Below are positions 5,655-56,158 of a stretch of DNA of 64,000 bases, one piece after another (the stretch's first letter is position 1; the number at the start of each line of letters is the position of its first letter). Both the position numbers and the translations under genes were made by a program. The notes beneath the pieces are model-generated. The model saw nothing but the letters and a program-made list of their open reading frames with translations. It had not been told where the DNA came from and did no database searches. Source of the DNA: Escherichia phage vB_EcoM-UFV13. The stretch is from sequence record NC_031103.1. One strand, 5' to 3'.

Positions 5655-6464
5655 ATGCTTAAAGAACAACTGATTGCCGAAGCGCAGAAAATTGATGCTT
5701 CCGTTGCTCTTGATAGTATTTTCGAATCAGTTAATATTTCTCCGGAAGCAAAAGAAACTTTCGGCACTGTATTCGAAGCTACCGTCAAGCAGCACGCCGT
5801 TAAATTAGCTGAATCTCATATCGCTAAAATTGCTGAAAAAGCAGAAGAAGAAGTAGAAAAAAATAAAGAAGAAGCAGAAGAAAAAGCTGAGAAGAAAATC
5901 GCTGAGCAAGCTTCTAAATTCATTGACCATCTTGCGAAAGAATGGCTCGCTGAAAATAAATTAGCAGTTGATAAAGGCATCAAAGCCGAACTGTTTGAAT
6001 CCATGCTTGGTGGATTAAAAGAGCTCTTTGTTGAACACAACGTTGTTGTTCCAGAAGAATCAGTTGATGTTGTAGCTGAAATGGAAGAAGAGCTGCAAGA
6101 ACATAAAGAAGAATCAGCTCGTCTGTTCGAAGAACTCAATATGCGCGACGCATATATCAATTATGTGCAGCGTGAAGTGGCATTGAGCGAAAGTACTAAA
6201 GATCTGACTGAGTCTCAAAAAGAAAAAGTCTCTGCTCTGGTCGAAGGTATGGATTATTCAGATGAATTCTCAAGTAAATTGAGTGCCATCGTAGAAATGG
6301 TGAAGAAGTCTAATAAAGATGAAAGCACTATTACTGAGGGTATAAATACTCCTGATACTGAAGCAGCCGGACTGAATTTCGTCACTGAAGCTGTAGAAGA
6401 TAAATCTGCATCTGGTGCAGAAGATATTGTAAGTGTATATGCGAAAGTCGCATCTCGTTTCTAA
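5655..6464 (+). CDS. 22: Prohead core scaffold protein gp22
   Basis: 269 aa as in T4; acidic, coiled-coil-rich; position. Confidence 0.9.
   Translation: MLKEQLIAEAQKIDASVALDSIFESVNISPEAKETFGTVFEATVKQHAVKLAESHIAKIAEKAEEEVEKNKEEAEEKAEKKIAEQASKFIDHLAKEWLAENKLAVDKGIKAELFESMLGGLKELFVEHNVVVPEESVDVVAEMEEELQEHKEESARLFEELNMRDAYINYVQREVALSESTKDLTESQKEKVSALVEGMDYSDEFSSKLSAIVEMVKKSNKDESTITEGINTPDTEAAGLNFVTEAVEDKSASGAEDIVSVYAKVASRF
6341..6348 (+). promoter_or_regulatory. T4-type late promoter TATAAATA inside the 3' part of gene 22, candidate gene 23 promoter
   Basis: Exact TATAAATA about 135 nt upstream of the gene 23 ATG; no exact motif in the short 22-23 spacer. Confidence 0.45.
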
Positions 6465-12168: not shown

Positions 12169-12849
12169 TTATTTTAATGTTACGAAAGAAGAATTGCGTG
12201 TTTCACGAATTAAAACTGATCCGTCACGGTTAATGTAATAAATTAAGCTAAATAAAGTTTGGTGTGCTGACGCATGCTCAAAACTTGTTGGGTGAGATTT
12301 CCAATCAGGAGTTTCAGCTATCCATTGATAAATCCACCAAGGAACAGTGCAGAATCCTGGATTTTTTCCAATCAGCTGAAGATTCGGACTAAAGTTTTCC
12401 GGAAGAGTAAATACAGACGGCTTTTCAGATTCAATAATCTCAGCTACAGCCTGTTCGAATTTTTCTTCAACAAAAGGAGTATCTTCAATCAAAACATCGG
12501 TATTTTCAGGAATTTTATCCGTTTCTACTACTTCAATTTTAATGTCAGATTTAACTGGAGAATCAATCAAAAGTGCTGCTTCTGGATTGACTTCTTCATC
12601 GTCATATTTTAATCCCTCTGCAGCATCAGCAGCATCAATTAAGTCTTTAATAGATAACCCATCAGTCTCTGGCATAGGTTCACTAGCGAGCTTCTGGAGG
12701 GCTTCTTCAATATCAACAACGATATTATCAAAAGATTTATTCTTTTTGACCTTTATACCAAACTGTTCAGCATATTCAGCTAATTTAGCTTTAGCTTCTT
12801 TATTATCATCAAGAGCCTTCAGCTCTGCAATATAATCTTTATCTATCAT
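12169..12849 (-). CDS. inh: Inh-like protein (inhibitor of prohead protease), acidic
   Basis: 226 aa, position next to hoc as in T4; GAGGA SD; identity by synteny and recalled length. Confidence 0.65.
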   Translation of the reverse strand: MIDKDYIAELKALDDNKEAKAKLAEYAEQFGIKVKKNKSFDNIVVDIEEALQKLASEPMPETDGLSIKDLIDAADAAEGLKYDDEEVNPEAALLIDSPVKSDIKIEVVETDKIPENTDVLIEDTPFVEEKFEQAVAEIIESEKPSVFTLPENFSPNLQLIGKNPGFCTVPWWIYQWIAETPDWKSHPTSFEHASAHQTLFSLIYYINRDGSVLIRETRNSSFVTLK

Positions 12850-12862
12850 AATATTTCCTCAG

Positions 12863-12870
12863 TATAAATA
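12863..12870 (+). promoter_or_regulatory. T4-type late promoter TATAAATA for uvsW
   Basis: Exact TATAAATA about 30 nt upstream of the uvsW ATG. Confidence 0.65.
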
Positions 12871-12899
12871 TAGATATATTTATTACATGGTATTTAGAC

Positions 12900-14411
12900 A
12901 TGACTGACATTAAAGTACATTTTTATGATTTTAGTCACGTGAGAATTGATTGTGAAGAAAGTACATTTCATGAACTCCGTGATTTCTTTAGCTTTGAAGC
13001 TGATGGGTATCGTTTTAATCCGAAGTACAGATATGGCCACTGGGATGGACGAATCCGTCTTTTAGATTATAATCGTCTTCTTCCATTCGGCTTAGTCGGG
13101 CAAATTAAAAAGTTCTGTGATAACTTTGGCTATAAAGCCTGGATTGACCCACAAATTAACGAAAAAGAAGAATTATCAAGAAAAGATTTTGATGAATGGC
13201 TTTCTAAATTAGAAATCTATTCAGGAAATAAAAGAATTGAACCACACTGGTATCAAAAAGATGCAGTGTTCGAAGGATTAGTTAATCGTCGTAGAATTCT
13301 TAATCTTCCAACATCCGCTGGTAAATCTTTAATTCAAGCTTTGCTTGCGCGATATTATTTGGAAAATTATGAAGGTAAAATTCTTATCATTGTTCCAACA
13401 ACTGCTCTGACAACTCAGATGGCTGATGACTTCGTTGACTATCGTTTATTCAGTCATGCAATGATAAAGAAAATTGGCGGCGGAGCATCAAAAGATGATA
13501 AATATAAAAATGATGCACCAGTCGTTGTTGGTACATGGCAAACTGTAGTTAAACAACCAAAAGAATGGTTCTCACAGTTTGGAATGATGATGAATGATGA
13601 ATGCCATCTTGCTACAGGAAAAAGTATTTCATCTATCATATCAGGTTTAAATAACTGTATGTTTAAATTTGGTCTATCAGGTTCATTACGTGATGGCAAA
13701 GCCAATATCATGCAGTATGTTGGAATGTTTGGTGAAATATTTAAGCCAGTAACGACTTCTAAATTAATGGAAGATGGGCAAGTAACTGAGCTAAAAATTA
13801 ATAGTATTTTTCTTCGCTATCCCGATGAGTTCACTACTAAATTAAAGGGGAAAACTTATCAAGAAGAAATAAAAATTATTACTGGGCTCAGTAAAAGAAA
13901 TAAATGGATCGCTAAATTAGCTATTAAGCTTGCGCAAAAAGATGAAAACGCTTTTGTCATGTTTAAACATGTATCACATGGTAAAGCTATTTTTGATTTA
14001 ATTAAAAATGAATACGATAAAGTTTATTACGTATCAGGGGAAGTTGATACCGAAACCCGCAATATAATGAAAACCTTAGCTGAAAACGGTAAAGGAATAA
14101 TTATAGTAGCTAGTTATGGTGTATTTTCTACTGGTATTTCAGTTAAAAATCTACATCACGTTGTTTTAGCGCACGGTGTTAAATCAAAAATCATTGTATT
14201 ACAAACAATCGGTCGTGTATTACGTAAGCACGGTTCTAAGACAATAGCAACAGTCTGGGACCTCATAGATGATTGTGGTGTTAAGCCAAAATCTGCTAAT
14301 ACGAAAAAGAAATATGTTCATTTGAACTATCTTTTAAAACACGGCATTGATCGTATTCAGCGCTACGCAGATGAAAAATTTAATTACGTAATGAAAACAG
14401 TTAATTTATAA
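12900..14411 (+). CDS. uvsW: UvsW DNA helicase (SF2, recombination/repair)
   Basis: 503 aa; Walker A LPTSAGKS; DECH box (MNDECH); helicase motif VI-like QTIGRVLRK. Confidence 0.92.
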   Translation: MTDIKVHFYDFSHVRIDCEESTFHELRDFFSFEADGYRFNPKYRYGHWDGRIRLLDYNRLLPFGLVGQIKKFCDNFGYKAWIDPQINEKEELSRKDFDEWLSKLEIYSGNKRIEPHWYQKDAVFEGLVNRRRILNLPTSAGKSLIQALLARYYLENYEGKILIIVPTTALTTQMADDFVDYRLFSHAMIKKIGGGASKDDKYKNDAPVVVGTWQTVVKQPKEWFSQFGMMMNDECHLATGKSISSIISGLNNCMFKFGLSGSLRDGKANIMQYVGMFGEIFKPVTTSKLMEDGQVTELKINSIFLRYPDEFTTKLKGKTYQEEIKIITGLSKRNKWIAKLAIKLAQKDENAFVMFKHVSHGKAIFDLIKNEYDKVYYVSGEVDTETRNIMKTLAENGKGIIIVASYGVFSTGISVKNLHHVVLAHGVKSKIIVLQTIGRVLRKHGSKTIATVWDLIDDCGVKPKSANTKKKYVHLNYLLKHGIDRIQRYADEKFNYVMKTVNL

Positions 14412-14424
14412 GGGCTTCGGCCCT
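14411..14424 (+). other. Stem-loop at the uvsW stop (AGGGC-TTCG-GCCCT)
   Basis: Perfect 5-bp stem with UUCG loop overlapping the TAA; followed by the uvsW.1 SD rather than a U-tract. Confidence 0.5.
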
Positions 14425-14436
14425 TTGGAGAAAAAG

Positions 14437-14667
14437 ATGTTACTAGAATTTAAACAATTTCTTTATGAAGCTTCTATTGATGAATTTATGGGTAAAATTG
14501 CCTCTTGTCAAACATTAGAAGGTTTAGAAGAACTTGAAGCTTATTATAAGAAAAGAGTTAAAGAAACTGAATTAAAAGATACTGATGACATCTCTGTGAG
14601 AGATGCTTTGGCAGGAAAAAGAGCTGAATTAGAAGATTCAGACGATGAAGTAGAAGAAAGCTTTTAA
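14437..14667 (+). CDS. uvsW.1: UvsW.1-like small acidic protein
   Basis: 76 aa from the ATG at 14437 (GGAG SD 6 nt upstream), matching T4 UvsW.1 length; the track start at 14425 is TTG. Confidence 0.7.
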   Translation: MLLEFKQFLYEASIDEFMGKIASCQTLEGLEELEAYYKKRVKETELKDTDDISVRDALAGKRAELEDSDDEVEESF

Positions 14668-14676
14668 ATTAAAAAA

Positions 14677-14699
14677 GGCCCAACCGAAAAGGAAGGGCC
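14677..14699 (-). terminator. Stem-loop between uvsW.1 and the minus-strand uvsY operon
   Basis: GGCCC...GGGCC inverted repeat; U-rich 3' side when read on the minus strand. Confidence 0.45.
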
Positions 14700-14722: not shown

Positions 14723-14890
14723 CTATAGCAAAAGTTGTGTTTCATTTAATTGTTCTTCCGAACTTTCTGAAACTGGTAGTTCTTTAATGTAATTATAGCA
14801 AGGCCCAGGATGTACAGGACCTTTGTCTGTTTCAACAACCAATGCAGAATCGATTGGAGTTTTACAGACAACACAAATCTTATCTGACAT
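14723..14890 (-). CDS. Small 55-aa protein with CxxC(20)C spacing, absent from the ORF track (possible uvsY.-1 equivalent)
   Basis: ATG at 14890 with GAGGAG SD 6 nt upstream and a late-promoter motif 26 nt upstream; translation MSDKICVVCKTPIDSALVVETDKGPVHPGPCYNYIKELPVSESSEEQLNETQLLL. Confidence 0.45.
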   Translation of the reverse strand: MSDKICVVCKTPIDSALVVETDKGPVHPGPCYNYIKELPVSESSEEQLNETQLLL

Positions 14891-14915
14891 GATTGTCTCC
14901 TCTGAATTATATATC

Positions 14916-14923
14916 TATTTATA
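14916..14923 (-). promoter_or_regulatory. T4-type late promoter (TATAAATA on the minus strand)
   Basis: TATTTATA on the + strand overlapping the stop of the 74-aa ORF, upstream of the 55-aa ORF. Confidence 0.55.
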
Positions 14924-15143
14924 CAACTCTCATATGCATATCAATGCCCATATCTTTAGAATAAAAATATTCATCAAGATATCCGGCAAATTTTCCTTTA
15001 ATATAAAGGACATCTTCACCACATGGATGATCAGCCAGGATACGAATATCCTGACGCTTAAGATTATGCTTTTTCATTAAGAATTGAATTTCCGTTTCAA
15101 ATTCTTCTTCATAATTAAAAGCATCATCAATGTTATATCTCAT
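14919..15143 (-). CDS. Hypothetical protein (positional equivalent of T4 uvsY.-2)
   Basis: 74 aa, immediately downstream of uvsY. Confidence 0.55.
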   Translation of the reverse strand: MRYNIDDAFNYEEEFETEIQFLMKKHNLKRQDIRILADHPCGEDVLYIKGKFAGYLDEYFYSKDMGIDMHMRVV

Positions 15144-15556
15144 TATTTTCCAGCCTCAAATGCTCGCATGTCTTGAATATGCTTAATAGCAAATCCACGT
15201 GATTTGATAGCATCAAGAGCTCCGCTACAGAAATCTAATAAAATTCCCCAATATTGTAATGAAGTATCAACCTTTAAAACATCCTTATCAGCTGATAGAA
15301 CTGTCTTCATTTCTGATTTCTCGTAACGATCCATACTAAATTCATCACCATCTCCTCGTCCCGAGTAGTAGTCTAATTTAGCTTTAAGAGCAACTTTTTT
15401 CTGTGCATCAATTCTAAGCATTTCCTTTTTAATACTTGAATGCTTATTAAGCCATTTACTATATAACATCACATTATTAGCTGCTTCATACTGCAATTTA
15501 GTCGAATCTATAAACACATCTTTCTTCAATTCTTCTTGAAGATCTTCTAATCTCAT
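15143..15556 (-). CDS. uvsY: UvsY recombination mediator
   Basis: 137 aa as in T4 UvsY; position. Confidence 0.9.
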   Translation of the reverse strand: MRLEDLQEELKKDVFIDSTKLQYEAANNVMLYSKWLNKHSSIKKEMLRIDAQKKVALKAKLDYYSGRGDGDEFSMDRYEKSEMKTVLSADKDVLKVDTSLQYWGILLDFCSGALDAIKSRGFAIKHIQDMRAFEAGK

Positions 15557-16668: not shown

Positions 16669-16676
16669 TATTTATA
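16669..16676 (-). promoter_or_regulatory. T4-type late promoter for genes 26-25 (TATAAATA on the minus strand)
   Basis: TATTTATA on the + strand, 22 nt upstream of the gene 26 ATG. Confidence 0.65.
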
Positions 16677-16680
16677 AATA
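16673..16680 (+). promoter_or_regulatory. T4-type late promoter TATAAATA for gene 51
   Basis: Exact TATAAATA 18 nt upstream of the gene 51 ATG; overlaps the minus-strand motif in the palindrome TATTTATAAATA. Confidence 0.6.
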
Positions 16681-25377: not shown

Positions 25378-27474
25378 TTATCCTTGAACGAACTTGTAAG
25401 GCATGTTTGTAATATCTATGCAAGACGCAATAATTCCAAGAGATGATTCTACTTTCTGTTTAACATTTGATGAAACAAATGATGCAAAGTCAACTCTGTC
25501 TTCTACTTCAATATCACCTGTCATTGCAACTACTTCACCGGTTTCCATTAAATGGTCTCCGTCATAGATTACCGATTCGGTGAGCTCTTCCGTAGTCATA
25601 ACTTCAGCTTGAATGAGTTTTGTATTATTAGATGTTGTTCCGTCATTATTAGAAGCATCAGTTATTTTATTAACTTTGACCATCAATCCGCGCGGTAGAA
25701 TAACTTCAGCTTCTGTTGCTATTCCGAGACTTCCTGGATATACAACATTAACTTTATGAGCTCCATCAATTGCCCATCCTATTTGAACTTTAACGTATTC
25801 AGGATTTTCTTTATACGCTCTTATTTCGTTTGGATTAATAGTTATTCCTTCTTCATTTTTATCAACTGTTAATTCATTGCGAGCTTCTGGTTCTAAAAGA
25901 CCAATACCAGCATGTGTAATTCCAAAACGTCCAAAAATGATAGGAGTTAAAGAAGTAGATACAAAATTTCTGAAATAGAACACTTTATTTTTAACTAGTG
26001 CTTCGTATATAGGAGCAGTCATACTTTGAGCACGATAAACTGTAATGCCTTCCGGTATGCGGTCACCATTTTCAAAAGCTGAATCTAAATTATTTATAGC
26101 AGATTCAATTTCTTTTTCACTCATTACATCATATCGTTCTGGATTGTAACGACCTAAAAGAAGATTATTAATGTCTGTATATCCTGAACCACAATATTCT
26201 CTAATACCTCGCTTTTGTGATGGAGTATATTTAGAACCATCACGGGCGATAGTAATATCAATCATTGGACCAGCGCCAATTCCGGAAAAGCTATAAATCA
26301 TTCGTTTGAGGAATTTAGTTTTTGCCGCATTCCAGGCATTTTTAGTTATTTCTCCCCAGACTTCATCTGACTGCCCTTTACGAGTTTTATTATGTTTATC
26401 AAGCCAATTATCTTTGTATTCTTCAAAGAATTTATTAACAGCTGCTGCGTATTTCTCTAAACATTTTATTGAAGTAGTTGGTTCATTTTTGATTGCGTTA
26501 AAAATTACATCTTTAATTTTTTCTGAAACTTCATCAACCTCACTTTTTGAAAAGAATTTATAGTCATAGTGAAGTTCATTCGCAGTTCCTTCGGCAATAA
26601 TTTTTGCTGCCTTAGTTTTAGAAGCTAATGAATTAATTCCAAGCTTCATTTCTTCTGCTTCGGGAATTAAAGGAGCGGTAGCAGGTTTATTGAAATTAGC
26701 TGCGGTAGATTCATACTTCTGGAATAATTCACTTTCAAATCTAGAAGATTCCAATGATTGACTTTGCGCAATTGCTCTACGGGAAATTTTAACTTTAACG
26801 ATTACAGCTTGGTCAGAACGCTTATCATTTTCTTGCGCAATAGATGCTGCAATTGCCTCATTTTTAGTTACTTGGGCTCCAGTATCTTTATTGATATAAA
26901 CATCACCGACCTTCGATTCAACTTTAGTAAAGAGCTCGGTACTAATTTCCGGAACTCCTGGAATGTCTTCTAGCGATACATTTTTGCGATGTATAAGAAT
27001 ATATGCATACTTTTTATCGTAATCCCAGAGTTCCTTAAGAAGGACGTATCTGCCACCTGAACGACTACGGATAAGTCTATCAGCAATAACTTGAATTTGT
27101 CGAGCTTGACCAGCAGTTTTAGACTTAAGAATACGAAGCATACAAGCATCAATTTTATATTGACGCATAGTTTGCATTGCAACAGTAAAAACTGAATTGA
27201 TATAATTAATTGGGCTTGGACCAAGACCTTTTAATTTAGCAATTGAACCTTTAGCAGTTAATGTAAAAGGAACAATATGCATCATTTTATCGCCCATCTT
27301 TAAATCGCGATTAGTATCACCTCCAGATGTATAGGTACATAAACGAAAGCCTGGTTGTTCAATTGCATCATCAACATGAACTGAAAAAATTTGTGGTATT
27401 TTCTTCTTTGGATTTAAGTTTGTAATCGGAAGAGTAGTATCTTCGTCAAATAATTCTGTAATAAGTTCCATCAT
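25378..27474 (-). CDS. alt: Alt ADP-ribosyltransferase
   Basis: 698 aa; N-terminus MELITELFDEDTTLPITNL and C-terminus IASCIDITNMPYKFVQG recalled as T4 Alt; ART motifs (YRxQ-like, STSL, EAEVILPRG). Confidence 0.9.
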   Translation of the reverse strand: MMELITELFDEDTTLPITNLNPKKKIPQIFSVHVDDAIEQPGFRLCTYTSGGDTNRDLKMGDKMMHIVPFTLTAKGSIAKLKGLGPSPINYINSVFTVAMQTMRQYKIDACMLRILKSKTAGQARQIQVIADRLIRSRSGGRYVLLKELWDYDKKYAYILIHRKNVSLEDIPGVPEISTELFTKVESKVGDVYINKDTGAQVTKNEAIAASIAQENDKRSDQAVIVKVKISRRAIAQSQSLESSRFESELFQKYESTAANFNKPATAPLIPEAEEMKLGINSLASKTKAAKIIAEGTANELHYDYKFFSKSEVDEVSEKIKDVIFNAIKNEPTTSIKCLEKYAAAVNKFFEEYKDNWLDKHNKTRKGQSDEVWGEITKNAWNAAKTKFLKRMIYSFSGIGAGPMIDITIARDGSKYTPSQKRGIREYCGSGYTDINNLLLGRYNPERYDVMSEKEIESAINNLDSAFENGDRIPEGITVYRAQSMTAPIYEALVKNKVFYFRNFVSTSLTPIIFGRFGITHAGIGLLEPEARNELTVDKNEEGITINPNEIRAYKENPEYVKVQIGWAIDGAHKVNVVYPGSLGIATEAEVILPRGLMVKVNKITDASNNDGTTSNNTKLIQAEVMTTEELTESVIYDGDHLMETGEVVAMTGDIEVEDRVDFASFVSSNVKQKVESSLGIIASCIDITNMPYKFVQG

Positions 27475-32834: not shown

Positions 32835-32842
32835 TATTTATA
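32835..32842 (-). promoter_or_regulatory. Late-promoter motif (TATAAATA on the minus strand) at the gene 31 stop, facing rIII
   Basis: TATTTATA on the + strand adjoining the gene 31 stop. Confidence 0.4.
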
Positions 32843-38318: not shown

Positions 38319-39906
<1,588 letters not shown>

Positions 39907-47165: not shown

Positions 47166-48074
47166 TTAAAGGTCATTCAAAAGGTCATCCAGGTCCGTGT
47201 CATCAGCACTAGATGAACTGCCAGAGCTTGAGCTCATAAAATCATCTTCAGTTTTTGTTTTGAAGTCATCAACATTGAATGCATCCAAATCATCAGCAAC
47301 TTTATCAGCTTTCTTAGCAGCAATTGCAGCGGCACCACCCATCACAGCAGTTCCCATGACTTGACTGAACTTAGTGCTCAGTTCTTCAAATGATTTGAAT
47401 TTATCTTTAGAAGTCATTTCAGAAAGGTCAACCATTTGTTCGAACAGTTCTTTCTGGAAAGATTCATCATCAATGTTTGGAATCGCAGATTGATTCAGGA
47501 ATTTAGATTCATCGTAGTTACTAAATCCAGAAACTTGTTTAACTTTCAGTACAAAGTTAGCACCTTCCCACGGACAAGTTACATCAACCGGAGTTTCACC
47601 CATTTCAACATCAACTGCAATCATTGCGTTGATTTTATCCCAGATTTTCTTACCGAAACGGTATTTAAATACTTTACCTTCATTTTCTGGAGCAGCCGGG
47701 TCTTTTACAACAAGAATGTTAGCCCAGTAAGAAGTTTTACGTTTAACAAGACTGTACTCTTTATTGTCAGTGTTGTACAAATCATTTTTACTGATGTACT
47801 GACATACTGGGCAAGAATCGTAATCACCGTGGGTAGATGAGCAATTTTCGATATACCATTTACCGTTTTTCTTGAAACCGTGATTTACAAGAATTGCGAA
47901 TGGTGCTTGTTCATCATTTTTAGACGGAAGAAAACGAATTACTGCTTGACCGTTACCCGCATTGTCGAGTTTCAGTTTCCACTCGCCTTTATCTTCAGAA
48001 GAAAAACCACCTTTATTTCCAGCCAGTTTAGCCATTTGTGCAGCGAGTTCAGCAGTAGATTTACGTTTAAACAT
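47166..48074 (-). CDS. 32: Single-stranded DNA-binding protein gp32
   Basis: 302 aa; N-terminus [52 protein letters not shown] recalled as T4 gp32; Zn site C..H..C..C; acidic C-terminus. Confidence 0.96.
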
Positions 48075-48157: not shown

Positions 48158-48165
48158 TATTTATA
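48158..48165 (-). promoter_or_regulatory. T4-type late promoter for gene 32 (TATAAATA on the minus strand)
   Basis: TATTTATA on the + strand about 85 nt upstream of the gene 32 ATG, upstream of the operator leader. Confidence 0.55.
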
Positions 48166-48173
48166 ATAAGCAA

Positions 48174-48827
48174 TTAATACTTACAAGATTTCACAGTTTC
48201 AATGAAAACATTTTTAGCTTTCTGTGAATCAATATTTAAAATTTTTCTATAAGCCTTTAACTTTATAGAATAATTATTCCAGACTAAATTATCAGTCTGT
48301 TCATCATGTTTATCAATTATATTTAAAAATGAATCAAGCAAGATAAACGTCTCAAACGAAATTATGTTCGACTGAAGCAGTTTAAAAATATAACTCGATT
48401 GAACCTTTGGATTATATTCAAAGATTTCTTTAAAAGCAGAAACTTCAACTTTTTTACTAAAATAATAAATGTTGCGAATATCTTCTTCAAACTTAAATTT
48501 AATTTGCTTTAAGCGTCCGATATATTCACGATAAAACACAAGTGCATCAGCGTCAGAGATGTCACCAATCCAAGCATCTTGGTTAGCAACCAGATTGCTT
48601 ATAAAGATTAAAGCAAGTTCCTTTAATTTATATTTTTCTGATAACTTCTGGAAAAAATACTTATCCCTTCGCTTTTGATAAGCGGCATCAGACACCCGCA
48701 TGCACCAATTATACTTAATTACATCATACTTTCCGTTCATATGTTGTTTTATCATTAAGTATAATTTATAAACTGATTTACCATCAATGTATCTTTCACC
48801 ACAAGCAGGCATGCGGAGTTTAATCAT
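48174..48827 (-). CDS. 59: gp59 helicase loader
   Basis: 217 aa as in T4 gp59; position between 33 and 32. Confidence 0.88.
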   Translation of the reverse strand: MIKLRMPACGERYIDGKSVYKLYLMIKQHMNGKYDVIKYNWCMRVSDAAYQKRRDKYFFQKLSEKYKLKELALIFISNLVANQDAWIGDISDADALVFYREYIGRLKQIKFKFEEDIRNIYYFSKKVEVSAFKEIFEYNPKVQSSYIFKLLQSNIISFETFILLDSFLNIIDKHDEQTDNLVWNNYSIKLKAYRKILNIDSQKAKNVFIETVKSCKY

Positions 48828-49162
48828 AGCAGAAAATCTAATGTATTAGTTTTTTCACAACGAACAACAGAAGGACGTAAAAGATTTTCGTCAATGGCTT
48901 CTGACTGAATTTTTTCAATTATACCCGAAGGAATAAATTTAGCAAATTGAGTTTCAGGAATAGAATTTTCTTCTAAGAATGCTGTTGTAGCTTCAAGATA
49001 ACTCATTCCAAACTCTTCTACCATTTTTTCAATAATAAATCCATTTTCTTGACGATCAAGAAGCTTTGCGATTTCATCTTTTTCCTTTTTAAGGGAAAGT
49101 TCTTTTTCTGAAAGCCCGGCCTCATCGACCGGGCGAATATCATTTAGAGAAAACTGTGTCAT
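48824..49162 (-). CDS. 33: gp33 late-transcription co-activator
   Basis: 112 aa from the ATG at 49162; the track start is TTG; position. Confidence 0.82.
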   Translation of the reverse strand: MTQFSLNDIRPVDEAGLSEKELSLKKEKDEIAKLLDRQENGFIIEKMVEEFGMSYLEATTAFLEENSIPETQFAKFIPSGIIEKIQSEAIDENLLRPSVVRCEKTNTLDFLL

Positions 49163-49409
49163 AAAGTTCAACTACCTCTTCAGTTTCAGCTTCAAACACA
49201 TCACGATTATCTTTATGATACAAAGCTAATAGACGATTAAACATCTTACCATCAACGCCAAGTTCATCTTTAGCACGAATTCGAATATCTTTAATCAGTT
49301 CATTATAACCGGAAATTTTCAGTTTATGATCAGATGCTTCTTTAATAAATTTAGCCAAGTCTTCGCCGTGGATAGCTTCATCAAATTCAACCATTTCTTT
49401 TTTAGCCAT
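49140..49409 (-). CDS. dsbA: DsbA double-stranded DNA-binding protein
   Basis: 89 aa as in T4 DsbA; position between rnh and 33. Confidence 0.75.
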   Translation of the reverse strand: MAKKEMVEFDEAIHGEDLAKFIKEASDHKLKISGYNELIKDIRIRAKDELGVDGKMFNRLLALYHKDNRDVFEAETEEVVELYDTVFSK

Positions 49410-55495: not shown

Positions 55496-56158
55496 ATGGC
55501 TGATTTAAAAGTAGGTTCAACAACTGGAGGCTCTGTCATTTGGCATCAAGGAAATTTTCCATTGAATCCAGCCGGTGACGATGTACTCTATAAATCATTT
55601 AAAATATATTCAGAATACAATAAACCACAAGCTGCTGATAACGATTTCGTTTCTAAAGCTAATGGTGGTACTTACGCCGCGACTGTTCGATTTAATGGAG
55701 GAGTACATGTTCCTACTATAGGTAGTAGTCAACAGTGTGGTGTTTATCCAGGTAACGGTGATGCAGCTACTTTTGCTATGGCAAATATTGACATCGTTTC
55801 GTGGAATGGTATTGGTTTTAAATCATCACAAGGTTCAGCAGACCGAACTGTTGTAATTAATGCACGTAATGGTGATATTAGTACAAAAGGCGTTGTGACA
55901 GCAGTAGGTCAAATAAGAAGTAATGCAGTTACTCCTATAGCAGCGAATGACCTTACTAGAAAGGACTATGTTGATGGAGCAATAAATACTGTTACAGCAA
56001 ATGCGAACTCTAGAGTGTTGCGTTCTGGCGATACTATGACAGGGAACTTAACCGCACCAAACTTTTTTTCGCAGAATCCTGCATCTCAACCTTCACATGT
56101 TCCACGATTTGACCAAATCGTAATTAAGGATTCTGTTCAAGATTTCGGCTATTATTAA
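55496..56158 (+). CDS. 36: Long tail fibre distal connector gp36
   Basis: 220 aa; position. Confidence 0.9.
   Translation: MADLKVGSTTGGSVIWHQGNFPLNPAGDDVLYKSFKIYSEYNKPQAADNDFVSKANGGTYAATVRFNGGVHVPTIGSSQQCGVYPGNGDAATFAMANIDIVSWNGIGFKSSQGSADRTVVINARNGDISTKGVVTAVGQIRSNAVTPIAANDLTRKDYVDGAINTVTANANSRVLRSGDTMTGNLTAPNFFSQNPASQPSHVPRFDQIVIKDSVQDFGYY

Follow-up and report, generated by a model that had tools for sequence, protein, structure and literature searches.

The window analysed here, a 64,000-nucleotide stretch of Escherichia phage vB_EcoM-UFV13 DNA (NC_031103.1), contains the gp25-uvsY-uvsW region of phage T4, and within it a 55-codon open reading frame on the minus strand that is the phage T4 gene uvsY.-2, here in a T4-type phage (Tequatrovirus). 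In the minus-strand reading the frame opens with an ATG at 14890-14888 and closes with a TAG stop at 14725-14723, and its translation is exactly the peptide of the original prediction. That prediction had called the frame unannotated because the ORF track on which it drew stopped at 60 aa; the gene is already annotated in T4, where it is T4p185 (NP_049797.1, AAD42525.1) in the RefSeq and GenBank records, and in RB3, where the CDS is labelled ‘W.1; uvsY.-2’, and it is covered by Pfam PF10886 and PHROG 1043. The name uvsY.-2 is also used in the records of RB51, Bp7, Aeromonas phage 31 and Phi1.

The protein encoded in the window is 100% identical over 55 aa to that of T4 (UniProt Q00778), and its neighbours are those of T4, with uvsY and uvsY.-1 upstream and uvsW.1 and uvsW convergent. 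Pfam DUF2685 (PF10886) aligned residues 3-55 to profile positions 1-55 of 55 with a score of 119 bits against a cut-off of 25, and PHROG 1043 was matched with an E-value of 3.9e-31. uvsY.-2 makes up the whole of each of these two families; every membership test placed the protein within uvsY.-2/DUF2685, of which it is the type member. A tblastn search located uvsY.-2 in 1250 phage records, 494 of them at 99% identity or above, T4 itself among these at 100%, and the remaining matches reach into T4-like phages of Klebsiella, Acinetobacter, Aeromonas and Vibrio. In a public assembly collection 3493 blocks carry an index entry for the exact protein, with the same neighbours there, and the 1.3-kb stretch surrounding the gene is at least 99% identical to many Tequatrovirus genomes. 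The features of the locus are collected in Table 1.

Table 1. Genes and sequence features in and around uvsY.-2 (window coordinates).
Feature	Coordinates	Strand	Description
uvsW	12900-14411	plus	Late-promoter box in front at 12863-12870
uvsW.1	14437-14667	plus	Pfam UvsW-1 and RB3 annotation; convergent with uvsY.-2, downstream of late gene uvsW
Predicted intrinsic terminator	14671-14699	minus	For uvsY/uvsY.-2 transcripts; GGCCC (14699-14695) and GGGCC (14681-14677), then UUUUUU (14676-14671)
uvsY.-2 CDS	14723-14890	minus	55 aa plus stop codon; Pfam DUF2685
UvsY.-2 tail, residues 38-55	14726-14779	minus	Acidic linker (SESSEEQLNE), invariant E42 (‘xES’ patch), end E50-T-Q-L-L-L55
UvsY.-2 predicted CCHC zinc-knuckle domain, residues 1-37	14780-14890	minus	Candidate ligands C6, C9, H27 and C31; predicted beta-hairpin 19-26 and helix 30-37
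Shine-Dalgarno sequence GAGGAG	14897-14902	minus	6-nt spacer ACAATC to ATG
Predicted transcription start, +1 (A)	14910	minus	Placed from box at -13 to -6
T4-type (gp55-dependent) late-promoter box TATAAATA	14916-14923	minus	Exact match; positions -13 to -6
uvsY.-1	14919-15143	minus	74 aa; PF26882; variable gene between uvsY and uvsY.-2
uvsY	15143-15556	minus	Recombination mediator, upstream operon gene; Pfam UvsY, 176 bits

Within this arrangement uvsY.-2 is the last gene of the gp25-uvsY cluster and converges on uvsW.1 and uvsW. In the window, and in nearly all of 46 IMG/VR loci fetched for comparison, uvsY.-2 occupies the orthologous position, following uvsY and facing uvsW.1/uvsW on the opposite strand; uvsW.1 was not detected in six distant loci among these 46. 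In most of the more distant relatives fetched uvsY.-1 was likewise not detected, and uvsY.-2 there follows uvsY either directly or with another ORF in between. Two loci, L044 and L045 (IMG/VR UViG_650627005 and UViG_650627004; ~2240-2500), yielded no detectable uvsY homologue between gp25 and uvsY.-2, and as the gap between these two genes is only ~170-260 nt, uvsY is either located elsewhere or too diverged for detection. Two modes of transcription have been described for the flanking genes, a MotA-dependent middle promoter of uvsY associated with oriF, and late-promoter driven transcription of uvsW (PMC3016281).

On the uvsW side, the window differs from the T4 reference in two respects. The segE homing-endonuclease gene, which in T4 lies between inh and uvsW, is missing from 12849-12900, between inh (12169-12849, minus) and uvsW (plus), which marks the window phage as a Tequatrovirus that lacks segE and is distinct from the T4 reference strain. 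Among public contigs encoding an identical UvsY.-2, segE was found in one (L054) and not in two others (L051 and L052). Furthermore, 12900-14667 is divided between two ORFs, uvsW with 503 aa and uvsW.1 with 76 aa when counted from the ATG at 14437, whereas the T4 RefSeq record gives a single 1764-nt uvsW CDS together with a note on sequence discrepancies.

Several independent lines of evidence establish that uvsY.-2 is a real gene, that it is translated and that strong purifying selection acts on it. None of the 46 loci fetched has a broken frame, so that the disruption in close relatives which had been named as grounds for abandoning the prediction is not seen, and Nei-Gojobori dN/dS values calculated against the window sequence ranged from 0.04 to 0.33, with a median of 0.18 over 274 informative pairs. 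UvsY.-2 is often more conserved than UvsY and gp25; in one relative (L010) its identity is 84%, against 58% for UvsY and 65% for gp25. Translation, another of the checks proposed at the outset, has been demonstrated by a time-resolved omics study of T4 in which UvsY.-2 (Q00778) was detected by LC-MS, with its RNA classed as ‘middle’ and its protein as ‘late’, as for gp11, gp34, gp35, gp37, gp57A and gp2 (PMC9697503). In the same study the RNAs of uvsY and uvsY.-1 were classed as ‘early’ and those of 25, 26 and uvsW as ‘late’ (PMC9697503). A phenotype, the third check, is also on record. In a CRISPRi-ART screen uvsY.-2 was scored as ‘Semi-Fit’, with a median fitness of 1.12 and a pooled-screen KS p of 0.12; single-guide knock-down lowered the titre to about half that of the control and gave smaller plaques, and complementation restored both the efficiency of plating (EOP) and plaque size (PMC11879866 and its source data). 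The effect of the knock-down is modest. That the 55 codons form a chance open frame and no gene, a reading for which nothing speaks beyond the small size, can be dismissed given the DUF2685 score, the distribution over 1250 phage genomes, the dN/dS of ~0.18 and the 46 intact frames, and it was already refuted by the mass spectrometric detection and the complemented knock-down. The gene, its family, the detection of the protein and the fitness effect have all been published, and there is nothing new in kind here; as a discovery uvsY.-2 carries no weight, its family and expression being already on record.

Upstream of uvsY.-2 the minus strand reads, in order, GTTG, TATAAATA, GATATATAATTCA, GAGGAG, ACAATC and ATG. 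The exact TATAAATA box is located 25-26 nt before the ATG, confirming the element that had been placed 26 nt upstream at 14916-14923, and is directly followed by the AT-rich GATATATAATT; octamer and AT-rich segment together define a T4 late promoter at the sequence level. The box encloses the TAA with which uvsY.-1 stops (14919-14921), and in many relatives the stop codon of the upstream gene likewise overlaps a [TA]ATAAATA box. With T4 late promoters in general the element shares the exact 8-mer, the AT-rich segment downstream, independence of a -35 element and a similar distance to the ATG; it differs in overlapping the stop of the preceding gene and in its position at the end of an operon transcribed in the middle mode. 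The original prediction considered a late promoter at such a site unusual, a view that does not hold, as about 50 T4 late-promoter sites have been listed (PMC2988020) and the nearby genes uvsW, 26 and 51 are also preceded by boxes. A late promoter in such a position is ordinary for T4. The region of 25, 26 and uvsY is reportedly composed of spatially and temporally overlapping transcription units, as Gruidl et al. are said to have described in 1991 (Virology 184:359).

Comparison with relatives argues for a functional box. A [TA]ATAAATA motif is present 15-33 nt before the uvsY.-2 ATG in 30 of 42 distinct upstream regions (ten with the exact TATAAATA and twenty with AATAAATA), against a background of 1.4% of 40-nt windows in the same loci. 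In the alignment of these relatives, ATAAATA and AGGAGACAATC-ATG form islands of conservation while the remainder of the leader has diverged, and the box is kept whichever gene precedes, be it uvsY.-1, uvsY or another ORF. The variation at the first position of the box is of a known kind. Nolan et al. placed the box at -13 to -6 and reported A or T at -13 to be common across T4-like phages (PMC1524935), and among the listed T4 sites the consensus is perfect at 32, with A for T at -13 as the commonest variant (nine sites), although not all of the listed sites are proven active (PMC2988020). The most distant relatives, of the Acinetobacter, Aeromonas and Vibrio phage types, lack a box before uvsY.-2. 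In one relative without the box (L041) the stop codon of uvsY and the ATG of uvsY.-2 overlap, and in another (L043) the two are separated by only a few bases; the missing box and the tight junction together suggest plain operon expression in these phages, with probable translational coupling to uvsY.

Within the window, exact TATAAATA boxes are more frequent than expected by chance, with 19 occurrences against 8.4 ± 2.8 in dinucleotide shuffles, none of 100 of which reached 19. For twelve of the 19, a same-strand ORF starts 14-34 nt downstream; these ORFs include uvsW, 26, 51, 34 and uvsY.-2. Between the divergent genes 26 and 51, a minus-strand box at 16669-16676 and a plus-strand box at 16673-16680 overlap back to back; they precede the two genes by 21 and 17 nt, respectively, and make up a compact pair of late promoters that face in both directions. 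For five others, at 6341-6348 (plus), 26091-26098 (minus), 32835-32842 (minus), 38855-38862 (plus) and 48158-48165 (minus), no same-strand ORF of at least 50 aa starts within 80 nt downstream. Gene 32 (47166-48074, minus) follows the last of these at a distance of 84 nt; the boxes at 6341, 26091, 32835 and 38855 could have arisen by chance or belong to smaller ORFs.

On the grounds of its sequence and conservation, the box before uvsY.-2 would act as a late promoter of its own. No promoter features are annotated in the T4 GenBank records, and in the literature neither direct 5’-end mapping of the uvsY.-2 promoter nor a T4 TSS data set was found. Alternatively, TATAAATA may lack promoter activity and have arisen as a by-product where the stop codon of uvsY.-1 falls in AT-rich spacer sequence; uvsY.-2 would then rely entirely on read-through, both from the middle promoter of uvsY and from the late promoters of 25/26 upstream. 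The location of the TAA within the box would agree with this, as would the chance expectation of about 8 among the 19 boxes, the published RNA class of ‘middle’ and not ‘late’, the direct coupling to uvsY in distant relatives that lack the box, and the warning that some listed sites may be inactive (PMC2988020). However, irrespective of the upstream gene, [TA]ATAAATA recurs at the same distance in 30 of the 42 relatives, where the background is 1.4%, the ATG spacing in the window is like that of the boxes before uvsW, 26, 51 and 34, and the RNA of uvsY.-2 follows later kinetics than those of the co-transcribed uvsY and uvsY.-1. The by-product explanation is thus considered unlikely.

The remaining elements of an expression unit are also recognizable. 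Placing the box at -13 to -6 (PMC1524935) puts the predicted +1 at 14910 and gives a 20-nt leader, ATAATTCAGAGGAGACAATC. The strong Shine-Dalgarno sequence GAGGAG, 6 nt upstream of the ATG, is present as originally described, and AGGAGACAATC-ATG is nearly invariant among the enterobacterial relatives. In the 55-nt gap between the convergent uvsY.-2 and uvsW.1, a GC-rich hairpin directly followed by a U-run has the make-up that defines an intrinsic terminator. A simple terminator scan missed this hairpin because its loop exceeds the 8-nt limit of the scan; it was recovered by RNA folding, which gave a z-score of -2.6 for an 81-nt stretch, and by comparison with relatives, most of which (among those examined) have a GC-rich hairpin and T-run after the uvsY.-2 stop, with stems that differ in sequence and retain their pairing. 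By its sequence, then, uvsY.-2 appears to possess a complete expression cassette of its own, consisting of the late box, a 20-nt leader with Shine-Dalgarno sequence, and a terminator. Such a cassette would allow two routes of expression. In the first, transcripts from the MotA-dependent middle promoter of uvsY at oriF would read through into the gene; in the second, after the late switch, a monocistronic late mRNA of ~240 nt would be made. The later RNA class of uvsY.-2 relative to uvsY and uvsY.-1 fits a late monocistronic RNA.

The original prediction noted a CxxC...C arrangement in the protein that could bind a metal. The CxxC and the further cysteine are indeed present, but the pattern was incomplete, as the conserved set consists of C6, C9, H27 and C31 (CxxC-x17-HxxxC). 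An exhaustive profile search of 1.84 billion representative proteins gave ~65 clusters at E ≤0.001. When informative domain fusions were sought among them, nearly all proved to be stand-alone proteins of 50-65 aa. A family alignment was built from 57 of the clusters, with a mean column identity of 32%. Across it C6, C9, C31 and E42 are invariant, and K10, G24, H27 and G29 are at least 90% conserved; among 21 close relatives all four candidate ligands are invariant, together with L48, E50, Q52 and L53. In two family members (P0080 and P0084) H27 is replaced by Cys, and as His to Cys is a classic metal-ligand swap, these replacements support a metal-binding reading. The invariant ligands, the swaps and the AlphaFold model all favour the metal binding first proposed, and UvsY.-2 probably binds zinc.

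The AlphaFold model, calculated from a deep alignment, has a mean pLDDT of 78.9, with values of 83-90 over residues 1-40, and comprises a CxxC knuckle followed by a beta-hairpin and a helix, with C31 where the helix begins and H27 just ahead of it. In both its ligands and its topology the predicted layout corresponds to a treble-clef or treble-clef-like zinc finger. Fold matches to the model were weak and fell short of significance, and almost all of them were zinc modules, namely LIM, eL24/Rlp24, FYVE and C1. The first finger of LIM domains follows the pattern CX2C-X16-23-HX2C. With this finger and the N-terminal knuckle of eL24/Rlp24, the UvsY.-2 model shares the CxxC knuckle, the beta-hairpin and a helix that begins near the third and fourth ligands, and the ligand spacing is similar. 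A PDB sequence search with UvsY.-2 gave no relative; lysostaphin, returned at E 1.7e-4, contained no stretch that passed by itself and was judged a compositional match.

A few longer proteins matched the family. One of 126 aa (P0030; PHROG 26998) carries a 72-residue N-terminal extension ahead of a complete DUF2685 module, and represents either a fusion or a miscalled start codon. Three others contain 3-5 partial DUF2685 stretches each, with profile coverage of positions 12-39 in P0064 (1774 aa), 22-52 in P0085 (445 aa) and 14-32 in P0069 (172 aa); these may be repeated zinc-knuckle-like modules or compositional matches.

Beyond the predicted knuckle, model confidence falls to a mean pLDDT of 56 over residues 41-50 and 69 over residues 51-55, consistent with a disordered or flexible tail. 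The carboxyl end is nonetheless conserved, with E-x-[QE]-[LM]-[LI]-[LMI] near the terminus in most of the family and Glu in place of the Gln in the Acinetobacter and Aeromonas phage homologues. By its conservation the end of the tail would carry the signature of a short linear docking motif. A comparison can be drawn with gp43, gp55 and gp33, which bind the gp45 clamp through ‘hydrophobic and acidic C-termini’ (PMC2988020) that are also short and follow a flexible linker near the C-terminus. The compared tails are ...ASLDFLFG in gp43, ...SLDFLYEAND in gp55 and ...TLDFLL in gp33, and the end of UvsY.-2, NETQLLL, departs from their consensus [ST]LDFL[FYL], with no more than a general acidic-hydrophobic character in common; a gp45-clamp epitope in the strict sense was therefore rejected. 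Binding of UvsY.-2 to the clamp is a speculative lead, suggested by analogy.

Two tails encoded in the window bear a superficial likeness to that of UvsY.-2 (...SESSEEQLNETQLLL) with no consensus match. These are the Ser-rich or acidic, Leu-rich C-terminus of gp32 and the end of gp33 (48824-49171), ...EKTNTLDFLL. Apart from uvsY.-2 itself, a scan of the window for acidic-hydrophobic C-termini returned a single ORF, of 46 aa, located at 55581-55721 (plus) and with such a tail, ...LFDLMEEYMFLL / ...LTPRLFDLMEEYMFLL.

Taken as a whole, the observations are best explained by a small regulator expressed from its own late cassette and built from a zinc knuckle and a docking tail, and this overall reading is judged likely. 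Residues 1-37 would form a single CCHC (CxxC-x17-HxxxC) treble-clef-like zinc knuckle, and residues 38-55 a flexible acidic tail with the conserved E-x-Q-L-L-L near the carboxyl end. At ~6 kDa and with such a build, UvsY.-2 is too small for an enzyme. The protein would most likely act late in infection as a zinc-stabilised protein-binding module or small regulator, with its acidic-hydrophobic tail docking on a conserved partner at that stage. Such a partner would probably belong to the phage DNA replication, recombination or late-transcription machinery encoded next door. The steady association with uvsY and uvsW, together with the overlap of the uvsY.-2 ATG and the uvsY stop in L041, points in the direction of DNA recombination and replication, a role that is put forward tentatively and at somewhat less than even likelihood.

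A late role in DNA transactions has to be weighed against two others. UvsY.-2 could be a late morphogenetic factor, for example a helper of baseplate or hub assembly, acting outside DNA metabolism. Its protein kinetics are those of the late class, as for gp11, gp34, gp35, gp37 and gp57A, and the gene adjoins the baseplate genes 25, 26 and 51; yet it is always found on the uvsY/uvsW side of the cluster, with its ATG overlapping the uvsY stop in L041, an acidic disordered tail joined to a single zinc knuckle is more typical of regulators and adaptors, and in the literature examined UvsY.-2 was not found as a virion protein. A morphogenetic role is accordingly very unlikely. An anti-defence protein that neutralises a host immune system would be in keeping with the role suggested by the authors of the CRISPRi-ART screen for their unknown ‘Fit’ and ‘Semi-Fit’ genes (PMC11879866). 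The usual pattern of anti-defence genes is patchy and fast-evolving, unlike the strong conservation, low dN/dS and fixed synteny of uvsY.-2 across phages of Escherichia, Klebsiella, Acinetobacter, Aeromonas and Vibrio, and late expression comes after most defence decisions, which makes this role quite unlikely.

For the preferred regulator, a working analogy of mechanism is offered by YacG, a gyrase inhibitor (PDB 4tma), and CsfB/Gin, an anti-sigma-G factor (PDB 5n7y). Both, at ~50-65 aa, contain a single zinc knuckle and work solely by attaching to other proteins, as UvsY.-2 might. A more specific proposal, doubtful at present, casts UvsY.-2 as a zinc-finger adaptor or inhibitor. Its C-terminal E-x-Q-L-L-L tail, conserved across the family, would insert into a hydrophobic pocket on one of the core proteins of DNA transactions. 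Candidate partners may include the gp45 sliding clamp, a partner of the gp32 acidic tail, UvsW/UvsW.1, the host beta-clamp and the SSB-interaction network.

UvsY.-2 is a highly conserved small protein, and its gene is one of the few T4 unknowns for which a fitness phenotype has been complemented. It offers clear handles for study in the four candidate zinc ligands, the invariant E42, the C-terminal motif and a self-contained cassette of promoter, Shine-Dalgarno sequence and terminator. If the adaptor or inhibitor proposal is true, UvsY.-2 would tune the late switch, from origin- to recombination-dependent replication, or late transcription, a function would be provided for a gene that ranks among the most conserved unknowns of the T4 family, and its published fitness effect would be explained.
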